Shown: piece after piece, positions 5,107-30,991 of the stretch | How positions within the stretch are numbered: position 1 is the stretch's first letter | How the letters are laid out: each line of letters begins with the position of its first letter | Source of the DNA: a virus | Length of the DNA: 30,991 nt | Direction: 5' to 3' (one strand) | Virus record (IMG/VR): IMGVR_UViG_3300045988_126185 | Location: 1 to 30,991 of that record | Made by a program: the position numbers and the translations under genes | The notes under the pieces: generated by a model | The model's database searches: none | What the model saw: the letters and a program-made list of their open reading frames with translations, nothing else | Told to the model about the DNA's origin: nothing

Positions 5107-5799
5107 ATGGACAAAAAATCTTATTATGCTATAATACCAGCAAATGTAAGATATGATGATAATTTAAAAGATAAAGCTAAATTATTATATGGAGAAATAA
5201 CAGCTTTATGTAATGAAAAAGGATATTGTTGGGCAACAAATGAATATTTTGCTAATTTATACAATGTTAGCAAAACTACAATATCCACTTTGATTAAAAA
5301 TTTAATAGATAATGGATACATATATTCAAGTTTTATTTACAAAGAAAATTCAAAAGAAATTGATAAAAGAATATTAAGTATAACTAATGTACCCCCTTTA
5401 AAAAATTTTAAAGACCCCCTTAAAGAAAATTTAAAGACCCCTTTAAAAAATTTTAAAGACCCCCTTAAAGAAAATTTAAAGGATAATAATACAATTAATA
5501 ATACAATTAATAATAGTAATAGTTATTATTATATAGAAGAACAATTTGGAAGAACATTAGCACCTGTTGAATATACAAAAATTGATAAATGGAAAGAAAC
5601 TTTTTCAGATGATATTATTAATTATGCAACTGATATAGCTATATTAAATGGGGTTAAGAATTTTAATTATATTGATGGTATTATTAGAAACTGGAAAGAT
5701 AAAAATATAAAAAGCATTAAAGAATTAAAAAATGAAACTTTAATTGAAAAGTCAATAAAAAAAGAATTGTTTGATTACAATTGGTTAGAAGAAGAATAG
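5107..5799 (+). CDS. Replisome organizer or replication initiator (phage_rep_org_N-like wHTH N-terminus plus DnaD-like C-terminal domain).
   Basis: N-terminus YYAIIPANVRYD...LLYGEITALCNEKGYCWATNEYFANLYNVSKTTISTLIKNL. C-terminus DKWKETFSDDIINYATDIAI...NYIDGIIRNW is DnaD/DnaB_2-like. Internal direct repeats are present. Confidence 0.65.
   Translation: MDKKSYYAIIPANVRYDDNLKDKAKLLYGEITALCNEKGYCWATNEYFANLYNVSKTTISTLIKNLIDNGYIYSSFIYKENSKEIDKRILSITNVPPLKNFKDPLKENLKTPLKNFKDPLKENLKDNNTINNTINNSNSYYYIEEQFGRTLAPVEYTKIDKWKETFSDDIINYATDIAILNGVKNFNYIDGIIRNWKDKNIKSIKELKNETLIEKSIKKELFDYNWLEEE
5393..5481. repeat. Four tandem ~21-22-bp C-rich iterons (CCCC(C)TTTAAAAAATTTTAAAGAC alternating with CCCCTTAAAGAAAATTTAAAGAC) inside the replisome-organizer gene, followed by an AT-rich AATAATACAATTAAT x2 tract. 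Candidate origin of replication.
   Basis: Direct repeats read in the sequence. The poly-C runs are conspicuous in an AT-rich genome. Origins lie inside the initiator gene in lambda O and SPP1 gene 38. Confidence 0.5.
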
Positions 5800-5808
5800 A
5801 GGTTAAAT

Positions 5809-6009
5809 ATGGTAGATGATAAATTTGTAAATGATACGATTAGACAATTAAAATGTGGACATAGTTGTTATTTATTTAATCATGAACAAGTTAAGATTAT
5901 AAAAGAAAAATATAGTAAAAAAACGAAATTAGAATTAGAAATAAAAAAAGATGGAGAATATTTTATAGCTAAGCCATCTAAAGCAGTATTAAAAAGCCAA
6001 CATTATTAA
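5809..6009 (+). CDS. Hypothetical protein (66 aa).
   Basis: ORF with RBS AGAGGT. Confidence 0.4.
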   Translation: MVDDKFVNDTIRQLKCGHSCYLFNHEQVKIIKEKYSKKTKLELEIKKDGEYFIAKPSKAVLKSQHY

Positions 6010-6743: not shown

Positions 6744-7060
6744 TGGAAAATGAATTAATGATAGTAGAAAATAATGAATTAGAATTAACAAAAGAAGGAA
6801 TTAAATTTATAAAAAAAGTTCAAAAAGCAAAGGTTGAACTTGCTAAAATGGAAGAACAATTAAAAGATATGTTTAAAGAAAAAATGGAAGAAAACGGTAT
6901 TAAAAAATACACAAGCCCTGATGGTACATTTAAAGCTACTTATTACGAAGAAACTGTTACAAATAGATTTGATAGTACTAAGTTTAAAAAAGAAAATGAA
7001 GAGCTTTATAATCAATATTTAAAACCATATAAAAGAAGTTCTTACATAAAATTCAATTAA
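6743..7060 (+). CDS. Hypothetical protein (105 aa).
   Basis: ORF, ATGA-coupled. Confidence 0.45.
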   Translation: MENELMIVENNELELTKEGIKFIKKVQKAKVELAKMEEQLKDMFKEKMEENGIKKYTSPDGTFKATYYEETVTNRFDSTKFKKENEELYNQYLKPYKRSSYIKFN

Positions 7061-7061
7061 T

Positions 7062-7625
7062 GTGTTAGAATTTATAGAAGAAAGCCATACTTACATATTA
7101 AATGGGGAAATAATACCATCTGTAACACAAATATTACAAGACTTATTTCCTCTTAAATATGATGGTGTTCCACAAGAAATATTAGATAATAAGGCTGAAT
7201 ATGGAACACAACTACATAAATTTATAGAAATAATAGAAAAAAAGAAACCTAAAAAACCTTTAGCATATATAAAACGATATTATAAGCCAAATATATACCA
7301 AGAAGAGAGTTTAAAAGATTATTTAAAAATAAAAGAAAAATATAATATAGTTATTACTGACAGTGAAAAAAGAGTTCATTACAAAAATAAATACTGTGGA
7401 ACATTAGATTTAAAAGGCTATGTTAATAATAAAAGTGCTATAATTGATATAAAAACTATTTACAAATTAGATGAATTATATGTCAGTTGGCAAAATAGTA
7501 TGTATGAATTAGCAGATGGTAAAGTAGACGAATTATATTGCTTATGGTTACCAAAAGGAAGATTAGGAAAATTAATTAAATTAGAAAGAATAGATAAAAA
7601 ATATTTATTAGCAATAATAGAATAG
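7062..7625 (+). CDS. PD-(D/E)XK family nuclease, a putative recombination exonuclease (GTG start).
   Basis: N-terminus HTYILNGEIIPSVTQIL and CGTLDLKGY...IIDIKT (D...D/E-x-K motif); lies within the recombination module. Confidence 0.5.
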   Translation: MLEFIEESHTYILNGEIIPSVTQILQDLFPLKYDGVPQEILDNKAEYGTQLHKFIEIIEKKKPKKPLAYIKRYYKPNIYQEESLKDYLKIKEKYNIVITDSEKRVHYKNKYCGTLDLKGYVNNKSAIIDIKTIYKLDELYVSWQNSMYELADGKVDELYCLWLPKGRLGKLIKLERIDKKYLLAIIE

Positions 7626-7637
7626 GAGGAATAAAGA

Positions 7638-8039
7638 ATGGAGTTTAAAATAGGAGAAAATTTAACAATATCACAATTACAAAGTGAAATAGATAAATTA
7701 TCAAATAAAGTAAGTAAAGAATATAACAATGTAATAAGCAATAGAGATAAAATAAATTATTTGAAAGAACAATTAAAAAAATTAAAAGAAGAAGAAAAGA
7801 ATAAACCAATTATTGATGAAACAGAAAAAAAATATTTAAAAGAAGTTATTAGACCATTTAAAGACAAAGTTGAATATATAAAAAAAATAATGAATCTTAA
7901 TAAAAGTAAAGAATATATATCTATAGGAATAGAATATGAACCATCTGTTGACCTCCCATATTTTGAAAAGAATAATATGTATGAAGGAATGGAAACAGGT
8001 AAGGAATATACATTAAAGGAGTTAGGTTTAGATGAATAA
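7638..8039 (+). CDS. Hypothetical protein (133 aa).
   Basis: ORF with RBS AGGAGG. Confidence 0.45.
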   Translation: MEFKIGENLTISQLQSEIDKLSNKVSKEYNNVISNRDKINYLKEQLKKLKEEEKNKPIIDETEKKYLKEVIRPFKDKVEYIKKIMNLNKSKEYISIGIEYEPSVDLPYFEKNNMYEGMETGKEYTLKELGLDE

Positions 8040-8445
8040 AGGAGTAATTGTTGGGAGATTAGTAAGAAATCCAGAATTAAGATATACAAGTTCAAATAAA
8101 GCAATTACAAAAATAACAATTGCTTGTAATAATTCAAAAGATGATACAACATTTTTAGATATAACAATATTTGGAAAAATGGCAGAAACAACTAACGAAT
8201 ATTGTCAAAAAGGAGATATTTTAGGAATAGAATACATAGTTAAAAATTACAATTGGGAAGATGAAGAAGGTAAAAGACACTTTACATATAATTTTATAGC
8301 TAATAGAGTAGAGTTTATATCAAAGGCTAGTAAATCTACTAACAAAGTAGAAATACCTCAAGAACAGGCTAAAAATAGTTTAAATAAAGATGTATTTGAT
8401 GAATTTGGAGATAGTGTTTCTATTGATGATAATTTTCTAGAATGA
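8032..8445 (+). CDS. ssb: Single-stranded DNA-binding protein with an acidic C-terminal tail.
   Basis: MNKGVIVGRLVRNPELRYT...ITIFGKMAE...KGD...; C-terminus ...DDNFLE matches the acidic SSB tail (DDDIPF-like). Confidence 0.7.
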   Translation: MNKGVIVGRLVRNPELRYTSSNKAITKITIACNNSKDDTTFLDITIFGKMAETTNEYCQKGDILGIEYIVKNYNWEDEEGKRHFTYNFIANRVEFISKASKSTNKVEIPQEQAKNSLNKDVFDEFGDSVSIDDNFLE

Positions 8446-8887: not shown

Positions 8888-9106
8888 ATGAAAAAAACAC
8901 AAAAAGAATTAATTGAAAAACATTTATTAAAAAAAGGTAAAATAACAAGTTGGGAAGCATTTAAAAGATATGGAATAACAAGATTATCACATATAATTTA
9001 TCTATTAAGAAAAGAAGACTATAATATTAAAAGTGTAAGTACTACTAAAAAAAATAGATATGGACATTATTGTACTTATAGCACATATACATTAGAAAAT
9101 GACTAA
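8888..9106 (+). CDS. Winged-HTH DNA-binding protein (HTH_36/HTH_39-like).
   Basis: ITSWEAFKRYGITRLSHIIYLLRKEDYNI motif. Confidence 0.4.
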   Translation: MKKTQKELIEKHLLKKGKITSWEAFKRYGITRLSHIIYLLRKEDYNIKSVSTTKKNRYGHYCTYSTYTLEND

Positions 9107-9386
9107 ACAAGAAAAATTAGTATATGAAAAAATAACCGAAGAACAACCATATTGCCAATTATGTGGTAGTACAAGCTATTTACATAGACACCACATTTAT
9201 TATAGAAGTCAATTAGGTTTAACGGTAGAAAAAAATATAATAGTATTATGTGATAAATGTCATAGATTAGTACATTCAAATAAAAAAGAATGGCAACCTA
9301 AGTTATTAGAAATTCAATATAAAAAATATGGCTATTTTGCAAAGGAAGAAGTCATTAAATGTAAGAAATATGGAAAAATAGCATGA
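9099..9386 (+). CDS. HNH endonuclease domain protein (zinc-binding).
   Basis: CQLCG...HRHHI...N..IVLCDKCH..VH, an HNH-type motif. Confidence 0.5.
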   Translation: MTKQEKLVYEKITEEQPYCQLCGSTSYLHRHHIYYRSQLGLTVEKNIIVLCDKCHRLVHSNKKEWQPKLLEIQYKKYGYFAKEEVIKCKKYGKIA

Positions 9387-9401
9387 AAGGAAAATGGGAA
9401 G

Positions 9402-9578
9402 ATGAGTTTTAAAAGAAAACTAGAAAGAAAAAACGAAAAAAAAGAACAATTAAATATTAAAAACACATATGGTAAAAAGCCTAAAGGAATTTGCCCTAGA
9501 TGCCATAAACATAGTATATTTATGACAAACCAAGAAAATGAAGTATATTGTATAAGATGTAATAATAGAATAAAATAA
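9402..9578 (+). CDS. Small zinc-ribbon protein (58 aa).
   Basis: CPRC...CIRC; ATG after GGAAAATGGGAAG; under 60 aa so absent from the track. Confidence 0.35.
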   Translation: MSFKRKLERKNEKKEQLNIKNTYGKKPKGICPRCHKHSIFMTNQENEVYCIRCNNRIK

Positions 9579-11224: not shown

Positions 11225-11701
11225 ATGAAAAAAATAGAAATTAAATATATACCAATAGATGATATAAAACCTTATATAAATAACCCTAGATTAAATGAAG
11301 AGGCTATTCCTTATGTTATGAATAGTATAAAAGAGTTTGGATTTAAAAACCCTATTATATTAGATAAAAACAATGTAATAGTAGCAGGACATACTAGATT
11401 AGAAAGTGCTAAAAGACTTGATATGAAAGAAGTACCAGTTATTTATGCTGATGACTTAACTAAAGAACAAATAAAAGCATTTAGATTAGCAGATAATAAA
11501 GTTAGTGAAAAATCAATATGGGACTATACTAAGTTAGATGAAGAATTAGAAAATATTTTAGATATTGATATGAGCATGTTTGATTTTGAGAATATAGAAG
11601 AAACTAATTTAGATGATTTTTTTGAAGATAACGATAATAAAAAAGAAAAGGAGAGTAAACTTATAGAATGCCCTCATTGTCATAAGCCTATTGAACTGTG
11701 A
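11225..11701 (+). CDS. ParB-like nuclease domain protein (ParB N-terminal/sulfiredoxin fold); possible DpdB-like partner of DpdA.
   Basis: IPIDDIKPYINNPR...NPIILDKNNVIVAGHTRLESAKRL...LADN matches ParB N-terminal motifs. Overlap-coupled (GTGA) to the downstream TGT-like gene. Confidence 0.6.
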   Translation: MKKIEIKYIPIDDIKPYINNPRLNEEAIPYVMNSIKEFGFKNPIILDKNNVIVAGHTRLESAKRLDMKEVPVIYADDLTKEQIKAFRLADNKVSEKSIWDYTKLDEELENILDIDMSMFDFENIEETNLDDFFEDNDNKKEKESKLIECPHCHKPIEL

Positions 11702-12441
11702 AAGTATTTTTGGCTTCAACAAGTAGTAGAGAAAATATGGGAGAGAGTGAACTAAATAAAATTCCATATATTTTAGAAAGTTTTTATACAATAAAAAATG
11801 AAAGAACATTAAATAGAATAAAAAATATAAATAAAAAGAAATTTTTGTTAGACAGTGGAGCATTTACTTTTATGAATGGTCATAAAGGAAAAGTTGACTG
11901 GAATAAATACATAGAAGATTATGCAAAATTCATTAATAAATATAATATAAAATATTTTTTTGAATTAGATATAGATGTAGTTGTAGGTATTAAAGAAGTT
12001 GAAAGATTAAGAAAAAAGCTTGAAATGTTAACTCACAAACAATGCATCCCAGTATGGCATAAATCTAGAGGATTAGAATATTATAAAAGAATGTGTAAAG
12101 AGTATAATTATATAGCAATTGGTGGAATAGTTATAGGAGAAATAAAAAAACAAGATTATAAAGTGTTTATTCCATTATTAAAAATTGCTAAAGAAAATAA
12201 TTGCAAAGTACACGGATTAGGTTTCACGGTAACGAGAGAACTTAACAAGTATCACTTTTATAGTGTTGATAGTACAAATTGGTTGTCTGGTGGAAGATTT
12301 GGACAATTACATACATTTAATGGAAAGTTTATTGAAAGTAAAAGTTTTAAAAACAAAAGAGCAAAAGATTATAAGCAAATAGATAAACATAATTTAGAGC
12401 AATGGATAAAGTTTCAAAATTATGCAGATAAATATTTATAA
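11698..12441 (+). CDS. dpdA: TGT-like transglycosylase of the DpdA type (7-deazaguanine DNA base-exchange enzyme), lacking the Zn-binding C-terminus of tRNA TGT.
   Basis: LLDSGAFTF resembles TGT LTDSGGFQ (catalytic Asp). NYIAIGGIVIGE resembles TGT GYAIGGLSVGE. VHGLGFT resembles LMGVGTP. Short length, GTG start, and a preQ0/preQ1 transporter gene lies downstream. Confidence 0.6.
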   Translation: MKVFLASTSSRENMGESELNKIPYILESFYTIKNERTLNRIKNINKKKFLLDSGAFTFMNGHKGKVDWNKYIEDYAKFINKYNIKYFFELDIDVVVGIKEVERLRKKLEMLTHKQCIPVWHKSRGLEYYKRMCKEYNYIAIGGIVIGEIKKQDYKVFIPLLKIAKENNCKVHGLGFTVTRELNKYHFYSVDSTNWLSGGRFGQLHTFNGKFIESKSFKNKRAKDYKQIDKHNLEQWIKFQNYADKYL

Positions 12442-12480
12442 GTAGTATGCAAAAACCTACTATAAAAAACTAAAGGAGAG
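12441..12480 (+). ncRNA. Candidate preQ1-I riboswitch aptamer: P1 AGUAG/CUACU, 11-nt loop ending AC, tail AUAAAAAACUAA running into the RBS.
   Basis: As I recall it, the tail is identical to the B. subtilis queC preQ1-I aptamer tail (CUAUAAAAAACUAA). There is a 5-bp P1, and it sits immediately 5' of a YhhQ/COG1738 gene, the classic genomic context. Confidence 0.5.
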
Positions 12481-13131
12481 ATTAAAATAAAAAAAGATAA
12501 AAAAATAAGTAAATTATTATTAGGACTAATTATTTTATATACAATTAGTTTCTTGATAAGCAATATTATAACAATTAAACAAATAATTTTACCATTTGGA
12601 ATAACAATGACAAGTGCAGTTATATTATTTCCGATAGTATATATATTAAGCGATGTATTTAGTGAAGTATATGGTTATAGATGGAGTAGAAATACAAGAT
12701 ATATAGCATTTGTAAGTAATTTATTTATGGTATTAATATTCACATTAGTAATAAAACTACCAAGTGCAAGTACATTCACAGGACAAGAAGCGTTGATACA
12801 AACATTAGGAAGCACACCAAAGGTATTATTTGCTTCATTATTAGCATATTTAGTTGGAGATTTTGTAAATGATAAAATATTTGCTAAAATGAAAGAAAAA
12901 CATACTGATACAAAAGGATTTGGAATAAGAGCAATATTATCCAGTTTATTTGGAGAATTAGTAGATAGTTCTATATTCTTACCAATTGTATTTTTAGGAG
13001 TATTACCAATTAATATAATAATTACAATGGCAATAACTCAAGTAATATTAAAAGTAAGTTATGAAGTAATAATGTTACCTATAACAAAGTTAGTTGTTAA
13101 AAAAGCAAAATTATACGAAGAAAATAACTAA
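12481..13131 (+). CDS. yhhQ: YhhQ-family (COG1738) queuosine-precursor (preQ0/preQ1) transporter; likely a non-canonical ATT or ATA start after RBS AAAGGAGAG.
   Basis: ISNIITIKQIILPFGITMTSAVILFPIVYILSDVFSEVYG aligns with E. coli YhhQ SSNYLVQLPVSILGFHTTWGAFSFPFIFLATDLTVRIFG. Conserved TM1 (KLLLGLIILYTISFL) is encoded upstream of the first canonical start (TTG 12553), in frame, with no ATG/GTG/TTG available. Confidence 0.65.
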   Translation: MKIKKDKKISKLLLGLIILYTISFLISNIITIKQIILPFGITMTSAVILFPIVYILSDVFSEVYGYRWSRNTRYIAFVSNLFMVLIFTLVIKLPSASTFTGQEALIQTLGSTPKVLFASLLAYLVGDFVNDKIFAKMKEKHTDTKGFGIRAILSSLFGELVDSSIFLPIVFLGVLPINIIITMAITQVILKVSYEVIMLPITKLVVKKAKLYEENN

Positions 13132-16147: not shown

Positions 16148-16432
16148 ATGAAAGAAATTTGGAAAGATGTTAAAAATTATGAAGGATTATATCAAGTCAG
16201 CAATTTAGAGTGGTGCACTCCATCTTATAATATTAATTATGGTAAAAGAAATAATAATTTGAATAAGGAAGTATGGCAATACGATTTGCAAGGTAAATTT
16301 ATAAAGAAATGGAAAAGCACGATGGAAATACAGAGAACTTTGGGTTTTAAAAACCAAAATATAAGTTTTGCGTGTTTGGGAGAAAAGCATACGTCACACG
16401 GTTACATATGGAAATATAGGGAGGTTGATTAA
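16148..16432 (+). CDS. Degenerate homing endonuclease: NUMOD4 N-terminus plus C-terminal DNA-binding motif, with the HNH catalytic core missing.
   Basis: MKEIWKDVKNYEGLYQVSNLEW (NUMOD4/I-HmuI-like) then directly ...LGFKNQNISFACLGEKHTSHGYIWKY. No H-N-H core lies between them. Confidence 0.5.
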   Translation: MKEIWKDVKNYEGLYQVSNLEWCTPSYNINYGKRNNNLNKEVWQYDLQGKFIKKWKSTMEIQRTLGFKNQNISFACLGEKHTSHGYIWKYREVD

Positions 16433-30867: not shown

Positions 30868-30991
30868 ATGATAGATTTTATAAATAATAATTTAAACTTG
30901 ATATTAAGTATATTAGGAACAATTTTAACTGCTGTTGGTGGTTATATAGCTAAATTATATAAAAAGTATATAAATGATAAACAAAAAAAAC
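30868..30991 (+). CDS. Holin, 5' portion (continues at window base 120 via the terminal repeat).
   Basis: ATG at 30868 with RBS AGGAGG. Its sequence from 30873 onward is identical to window 1-119, which continues in frame to the stop at 319. Confidence 0.6.
   Translation, partial: MIDFINNNLNLILSILGTILTAVGGYIAKLYKKYINDKQKK

Follow-up and report, generated by a model that had tools for sequence, protein, structure and literature searches.

A candidate salvage-type 7-deazaguanine DNA modification module, with a predicted preQ1 riboswitch ahead of its transporter gene, in a circular viral genome

The viral record IMGVR_UViG_3300045988_126185 (30,991 nucleotides, analyzed over its whole length and referred to here as the window) carries on its plus strand a group of three genes and one RNA element that may together place a 7-deazaguanine base into phage DNA. 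The first gene encodes a ParB-like protein of 158 aa (11225-11701), the second a 247-aa protein with a GTG start (11698-12441), assigned here to a compact, zinc-less phage DpdA of the tRNA-guanine transglycosylase (TGT) superfamily, and the third a YhhQ/COG1738 queuosine-precursor transporter, probably of 214 aa from an ATA codon (12487-13131). Between the second and third genes lies a predicted class I preQ1 riboswitch aptamer (12436-12479). The three open reading frames (ORFs) on which the original prediction was built were recovered on the plus strand, as was the overlap that it described between the first two: the stop codon TGA of the ParB-like gene (11699-11701) and the start codon GTG of dpdA (11698-11700) share the 4 nt GTGA, and dpdA has no Shine-Dalgarno (SD) sequence of its own, an arrangement that indicates translational coupling of the pair. 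Since the first 119 bases (1-119) and the last 119 (30873-30991) form an exact direct repeat, the window is a complete circular genome, as had also been claimed; a repeat of this kind is what assembling a genome that is circular or terminally redundant would leave. No QueC, QueD, QueE, FolE or related genes were found in a Pfam scan of all plus-strand ORFs, and custom profiles built from phage Que proteins gave no match in six-frame segments at E<=10, in agreement with the predicted absence of queCDE and folE.

The translation of the 247-aa ORF contains the motifs LLDSGAFTF, YIAIGGIVIGE and VHGLGFT, from which it had originally been called TGT-like. The protein matched phrog_887 ("queuine tRNA-ribosyltransferase") at 9e-60 and the PADLOC DpdA model at ~1e-5, the latter over residues 136-194 only, a stretch to which the match with the NCBIfam model of bacterial DpdA (bDpdA, NF041059) was likewise confined. 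In tblastn searches it was related to the DpdA proteins of phages Iggy (27% identity, E 2e-12) and CAjan (25%, E 5e-10), whose DNA carries dPreQ0 (PMC10484667). Because PDB sequence searches, with the single sequence or with an eight-sequence profile, gave chance matches only, the fold had to be assessed with a structure model, which predicted a TGT-type (beta/alpha)8 barrel consisting of the TIM barrel only, with bacterial DpdA, the DNA preQ0 insertase (7ui4), as its best structural match. At E<=1e-5, the corresponding family comprised 5,049 proteins, of which nearly all have ~245 aa and none is annotated by Pfam.

Bacterial DpdA residues with a demonstrated or suggested catalytic role (D95, F99, D130, H181-G182, G206-G207, L236 and D256; PMC10164549) have ordered counterparts in the 247-aa protein (D52, F56, D93, H121, G142-G143, L174 and D191), mapped by motif order and alignment rather than by side-chain superposition. 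These positions were invariant or nearly so among 48 homologues, and most of them are common to the DpdA proteins of Iggy and MS1. The only cysteines of the protein are C116, C133 and C169, with no CxCxxC zinc motif, which is likewise absent from the aligned Iggy and MS1 sequences, and the chain ends at 247 aa with no helical insertion of the bDpdA type (Ins8). The lack of a zinc subdomain, attributed in the original prediction to phage and bacterial DpdA alike, therefore holds for the phage proteins but not for bacterial DpdA, which has a conserved CxCx2Cx22H zinc site (PMC10164549). Orthologues of the same clade (47-72% identity) were followed by queC, queD, queE and folE in 32 viral clusters and in 18 prophage loci, 7 of which also have yhhQ and 11 of which do not, and since these orthologues head such canonical operons, gene context ties the clade to 7-deazaguanine chemistry. 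Taken with the modeled fold, these data support the identification of the 247-aa protein as a DpdA-type DNA transglycosylase, for which base exchange on DNA is predicted.

The same components could be read as serving translation. Import through YhhQ would then raise the queuosine content of host tRNAs (Asn, Asp, Tyr and His), to the benefit of NAU-rich genes, with the TGT-like protein acting on tRNA or assisting. Codon usage in 15 phage genes is in keeping with this proposal (NAU makes up 80-90% of NAY codons, and NAY 21% of all codons), such boosting of queuosine has been put forward for phages that have a preQ0 pathway and no DpdA (Hutinet 2019, PMC6884629), and the riboswitch belongs to the class that controls tRNA-queuosine salvage genes in bacteria. 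However, the closest structure is that of a DNA-modifying enzyme, the modeled protein lacks a tRNA-binding C-terminal domain, its nearest characterized relatives modify DNA, the phage encodes no tRNA genes, and in ~97% of loci dpdA is linked with the gene of a DNA-binding ParB-like protein. We therefore consider an action directed at tRNA highly unlikely and favor one directed at phage DNA; that YhhQ also plays a supporting role for host tRNA is possible.

The assignment of the third gene to the YhhQ family, also part of the original prediction, was confirmed by scores well above the cutoffs of Vut_1 (4e-40, 138 bits vs. 27.2) and of the TIGR00697 equivalog "queuosine precursor transporter" (100.9 bits vs. 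50.95). The protein is 58% identical to gp5 of phage MS1, which itself lies inside a queCDE-folE-dpdA operon. Import of preQ0 by YhhQ has been shown experimentally, and preQ1 riboswitches control bacterial yhhQ genes (PMC5372724). The ORF with a canonical start that had been reported for this gene (12553-13131, 192 aa, TTG) exists, but translation more likely begins upstream of it. The codon at 12487-12489 is ATA in the window and in two close variants (L005 and L006) and ATG in a sister contig (L004), where it stands 8 nt past the SD sequence and yields a YhhQ of 214 aa with an extra N-terminal helix, a helix shared with MS1 gp5. In the window, the frame is open from 12487 and an intact SD sequence lies 8 nt upstream of the ATA codon; in L006, a TAA directly precedes the ATA and the extension differs by 4 synonymous vs. 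1 non-synonymous changes, an apparent sign of purifying selection on the N-terminal extension. Based on the open frame, the SD spacing, the ATG of the sister contig and this pattern of changes, yhhQ probably starts at AUA 12487, which implies weak initiation.

The 45-nt spacer that follows the dpdA stop codon (UUAUAAGUAGUAUGCAAAAACCUACUAUAAAAAACUAAAGGAGA) holds the predicted riboswitch, which was first spotted by eye and afterwards analyzed by a local Rfam scan and by comparison of orthologues. Its P1 helix is formed by 12441-12445 and 12457-12461, and an A-rich tail (12462-12473), whose sequence AUAAAAAACUAA equals the family consensus, leads into the SD sequence AAAGGAG of yhhQ (12472-12478). 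A copy at the same position in a related locus (L071) scored 42.5 bits with the preQ1-I family RF00522, above its threshold of 39. A covariance model built from nine copies recovered 18 instances among 155 sequences, directly upstream of the yhhQ start in all but one (the L022 copy precedes a queC-yhhQ pair), and the same search found no instance in loci with de novo synthesis only. Across the 15 distinct sequences, pairing of P1 (5 bp) was maintained in 98.6% of cells, with compensatory changes in three of the five pairs (UA/CG/AU, AU/GC/UA); none of 500 shuffles matched this covariation, and slid controls were 17-70% paired. These results support a class I preQ1 riboswitch, predicted from sequence, that would gate yhhQ, and this class acts as an OFF switch (PMC5372724, PMC11477304). 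A riboswitch together with DpdA is not mentioned in the searched literature.

In order to place this arrangement among its relatives, 153 related loci were considered, comprising contigs with the same protein or close homologues, 80 IMG/VR loci and 62 bacterial-genome loci, all scored with profiles for ParB, DpdA, YhhQ, QueC, QueD, QueE and FolE; viral and metagenomic loci were clustered at 85% identity. YhhQ occurred without QueD in 17 viral clusters and QueD without YhhQ in 32, and no cluster had both or neither; among prophage loci, 23 had YhhQ only, 11 QueD only, 7 both and 3 neither. The anticorrelation was significant in the prophage set (Fisher p = 9e-4) and in the combined data (p = 2e-15), p-values that ignore phylogenetic relatedness. 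The perfect exclusivity seen among the viral clusters had to be given up for a strong anticorrelation, given the seven prophage loci with both (L104, L112, L116, L120, L121, L122 and L125), which come mostly from Bacteroidales (Alistipes, Muribaculaceae, Rikenellaceae) and carry the full de novo pathway plus yhhQ, as do phages CAjan and MS1, which have yhhQ as well as de novo genes. In the three prophage loci with neither (L135, L143 and L144), ParB-dpdA stands without yhhQ or que genes within 6 kb, and these true DpdA-only versions presumably rely on the host pool. The gene order of the window was also found in the 85-kb Fusobacterium phage phiFN37, at 38% identity. Since YhhQ and QueD anticorrelate across loci, gene content points to a transporter in place of the biosynthetic operon as a common architecture, represented by the window.

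Several further genes were observed in the related loci. A 280-aa radical S-adenosylmethionine (SAM) protein in L008 was picked up by the QueE profile and turned out to be a PA0069/SPL-type enzyme, not QueE. L011 (3425-3784), L008 (9420-9785) and ~25 other loci encode a conserved protein of 120 aa that is similar to xanthine/hypoxanthine-guanine phosphoribosyltransferases in their C-terminal half; its gene lies inside many de novo operons, frequently those that lack folE. Its role could be to recycle guanine that DpdA sets free, or it could act on a deazapurine base. Just upstream of the riboswitch, a ~100-aa protein with a Cys-x-x-Gly-Gln-Asp motif and a weak QueF-II match (TIGR03139, 5e-4) was encoded in L047 (2826-3143), L071 (2782-3087), L065 (4829-5143) and L033 (11750-12115), and in L071 dpdA is followed by a class I SAM methyltransferase gene. 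Relatives with the QueF-like protein or the methyltransferase may make preQ1 or a methylated derivative. In several loci without a riboswitch, including L001 (phiFN37, 6805-7239) and L048 (1694-2134), a DUF6884 protein (6e-41) is encoded between dpdA and yhhQ, and this uncharacterized family seems to be linked to the 7-deazaguanine pathway.

The 158-aa product of the first gene matched ParB_N (PF02195) with 31.9 bits against a cutoff of 26.3, as the original prediction had anticipated, and phrog_620 at 2e-53. The protein is similar to the ParB-type domain of phage methyltransferase fusions (phrog_498, 2e-40), its best PADLOC match was the ParB-type N-domain of type II methyltransferases (MTase_II, 1e-24), and its sequence matches in the PDB were to ParB/Spo0J/Noc. 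A GxxR signature (G55-H-T-R58) is present, along with an acidic tail and CPHC at the C terminus, and G55 and R58 were kept in at least 80% of 121 DpdA-linked ParB-like partners. Its earlier likening to bacterial DpdB was borne out as regards a conserved partnership with dpdA and had to be rejected as regards family membership: it matched neither the NCBIfam (E<=0.01) nor the PADLOC (E<=1) model of DpdB, it has GHTR vs. DGQQR, and its 158 aa compare with ~400 aa for a two-domain ATPase of ~45 kDa. A ParB-like gene lay directly upstream of dpdA in 49 of the 50 viral/metagenomic clusters that had 600 nt or more of sequence on that side, and in 52 of 54 prophage loci (~97%), mostly with a 4-nt overlap. 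The genes upstream of the pair vary (a helicase, a C5-methylase with a radical SAM enzyme, or small ORFs), as do those downstream (que genes, DUF6884 or yhhQ), and the pair itself stays together; where 2-3 kb of que genes intervene, the ParB-like gene keeps with dpdA and not with the terminase gene.

It may be that this protein has no part in DpdA chemistry and is a general DNA-binding protein, for packaging, partition or transcription, that is merely syntenic with dpdA. phrog_620 and ParB_N proteins like it occur widely in phages that lack DpdA, the domain is also fused to methyltransferases, and phiFN37 has three paralogues, one of which adjoins a PAPS-reductase-like gene; no ParB gene neighbors Iggy dpdA, and 9g DpdA functions in E. 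coli without a ParB partner (PMC6884629). Yet the pair persists, typically overlapping, as both flanks change, the ParB-like gene keeps to dpdA rather than to the terminase gene when que genes intervene, the linkage recurs in two independent collections, and bacterial DpdA needs a ParB-fold ATPase partner (PMC10164549). A bystander role thus appears rather doubtful. We favor the hypothesis, drawn by analogy and resting on linkage, that the ParB-like protein is a functional counterpart of DpdB. The three phiFN37 paralogues (L001) are encoded within 7 kb, at 2054-2560, 5519-6004 and 8922-9410, one after the PAPS-reductase-like gene, one coupled to dpdA and one alone, which suggests that ParB-type domains are interchangeable partners of different DNA-modifying enzymes.

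Taken together, the locus is best explained, with a probability of about 0.7, as a minimal salvage-type phage system that would place 7-deazaguanine into phage DNA. The combination of a DpdA-type transglycosylase, a ParB-like protein and YhhQ import in the place of synthesis genes, as originally proposed, is supported by the fold, the catalytic residues, the orthologous operons, the anticorrelation and the riboswitch. According to this proposal, the ParB-like protein and DpdA would be produced together via the GTGA overlap, and DpdA would remove guanine from double-stranded phage DNA after replication, with D191 as nucleophile and D52 as acid/base, inserting a free 7-deazaguanine base in its place. 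This base may be preQ0 or preQ1, between which aptamer class and transporter family do not discriminate; it would not be made by the phage and would instead be imported through its own YhhQ or drawn from the host pool. The ParB-like protein would probably aid the engagement of DpdA with DNA, possibly in a nucleoside triphosphate (NTP)-dependent manner, as DpdB does for bacterial DpdA. When precursor is plentiful, the preQ1-I riboswitch over the yhhQ ribosome-binding site would lower transporter synthesis, and the weak AUA start would hold this membrane protein at a low level. DNA modified in this way is expected to withstand restriction.

A number of observations weigh against this explanation. 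Pfam TGT (PF01702), the family expected from the original prediction, did not match the 247-aa protein, and the NCBIfam bDpdA model scored 22.9 bits against a cutoff of 200. RF00522 aligned to the window's riboswitch over its full length with only 23.5 bits (E 0.0056, local scan), below threshold, and an Rfam scan of the whole window at gathering threshold found nothing; a P2 pseudoknot pairing sought by eye was not convincing, nor was any covariation of the loop with the CUA(A/C)GG tail. The full-length yhhQ has no canonical start codon, and in CAjan, a phage with de novo synthesis, modification was unchanged when yhhQ was deleted. The ParB linkage could in part be inherited synteny within one clade. 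The host was placed no further than some low-GC Gram-positive (terminase and endolysin are only 23-49% identical to those of phages of Clostridium, Bacillus, Lactobacillus and Agathobaculum, and a prophage scan yielded at most 56%), and for that reason the supply of precursor cannot be judged. Finally, of the only two DpdA-only phages measured so far, mycobacteriophage Orion has fewer than 6 modifications per 10^6 nt, i.e. none, and phage 7-11 only 50 dADG per 10^6 nt (0.02% of G), so that modification could be low and environment-dependent.

Orion, with DpdA only and unmodified DNA, is also the precedent for regarding the module as a decaying or conditionally silent remnant of a preQ0 operon, whose que genes were lost and whose DpdA is left without substrate. 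The low Rfam score of the riboswitch copy and the change of the yhhQ start from ATG to ATA in three of four strain variants would fit such decay. Against it, the three ORFs are intact and the catalytic residues are invariant across the homologues, the YhhQ-only architecture recurs in at least 11 viral clusters and 23 prophage loci, P1 has been maintained by compensatory changes, and the YhhQ extension has accumulated mainly synonymous differences. This makes a remnant very improbable, and a functional salvage system remains the preferred explanation.

A broader proposal, which we offer as tentative and on balance somewhat doubtful, is that the DpdA enzymes of the ~245-aa clade, a large one, can work only together with a small NTP-binding protein of ParB type, as a machine of two proteins, and that this partner was recruited independently as a functional analogue of bacterial DpdB. 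In the salvage branch of the clade, the viral preQ1 riboswitch would meter the import of environmental preQ1 or preQ0, so that the level of modification and of restriction resistance would be set by the queuosine-precursor economy of the (gut-type) community and not by phage or host. Modification with 7-deazaguanines is an established anti-restriction strategy, and the source of the base in DpdA-only phages has been an open question since 2019; the locus described here and its ~40 relatives offer a testable answer, in which a transporter under a ligand-sensing RNA replaces the biosynthetic operon. The conserved ParB-like partner may explain why some phage DpdA proteins are inactive when expressed alone, in parallel with the ATPase requirement of bacterial DpdA. 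If this is borne out, resistance of the phage to restriction (and to Cas9 in vitro) would hinge on the availability of a community micronutrient, and the riboswitch would be among the few clear cases of a metabolite-sensing RNA that serves the DNA chemistry of a virus.

As regards the rest of the genome, its G+C content is ~25% and all genes lie on a single coding strand. The scan for promoters was uninformative (22 promoter-like sites vs. 27.9 expected), that for terminators found none in the window, and the module had no megablast match among 50,697 phage records. An LLH-type holin gene crosses the junction of the 119-bp repeat, and two SSB genes (1637-1933 and 8032-8445; Pfam SSB 7.7e-15 and 7e-22) are present within 31 kb. 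The Pfam scan detected neither an integrase nor a repressor family. Between the terminase and portal genes, the window (16148-16432) and L005 have a small ORF with a NUMOD4 (homing-endonuclease) motif; because the sister contig L004 carries other small ORFs (67 and 113 aa) at that site, it may be a mobile insertion.

The existence of phage DpdA systems, of a DpdA-only group and of occasional phage yhhQ genes is already known (PMC6884629), and for DpdA-only phages the use of host preQ0, or uptake, has been suggested, with YhhQ noted in some phages (PMC6884629). Three features are new with respect to the searched literature: a compact 245-aa DpdA clade in which a ParB-like partner is almost universal, the systematic substitution of yhhQ for que genes in that clade, and a preQ1 riboswitch carried by a phage. 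With the phage DpdA1 proteins of 9g, CAjan and Iggy (PMC6884629, PMC7544227, PMC10484667), the window protein shares the zinc-less TGT TIM barrel, the catalytic Asp/His/Gly set and a position among early DNA-metabolism genes, and yhhQ is also found in CAjan and MS1. It differs from DpdA1 in being only 25-27% identical, ~65 residues shorter and devoid of the C-terminal insertion. The window also differs from DpdA1 systems in having none of folE, queD, queE or queC, in an upstream ParB-like partner that looks obligatory and in the preQ1 riboswitch before yhhQ; neither the partner nor the riboswitch is mentioned in those papers. With the published DpdA-only phages it has in common a DpdA without any preQ0 synthesis gene, to which it adds a ParB-like partner, a riboswitch and, within its clade, the strong anticorrelation of YhhQ with de novo genes.

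The bacterial Dpd system of Salmonella Montevideo (PMC10164549) likewise sets a DNA preQ0 transglycosylase beside a ParB-superfamily protein, and provides the best structural match (7ui4). However, bDpdA has 413 aa, four insertions and the CxCx2Cx22H zinc site, none of which is found in the window protein, and DpdB is a DndB-like ATPase of ~45 kDa whose DGQQR motif and helical C-domain are not present in the ParB-like protein; both window proteins fall outside the bDpdA and DpdB family models, and the dpdC-K restriction genes are absent. Finally, the bacterial yhhQ, queT and qrtT genes controlled by preQ1-I riboswitches (PMC5372724, PMC11477304) share with the window the aptamer class, the transporter family, the OFF logic and an SD sequence by the A-rich tail. 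In contrast to these, the window element has an entirely AU-rich P1 and a sub-threshold Rfam score, it is phage-encoded, it lies inside a DNA modification module directly after the dpdA stop codon, and it is proposed to feed the modification of DNA rather than of tRNA.

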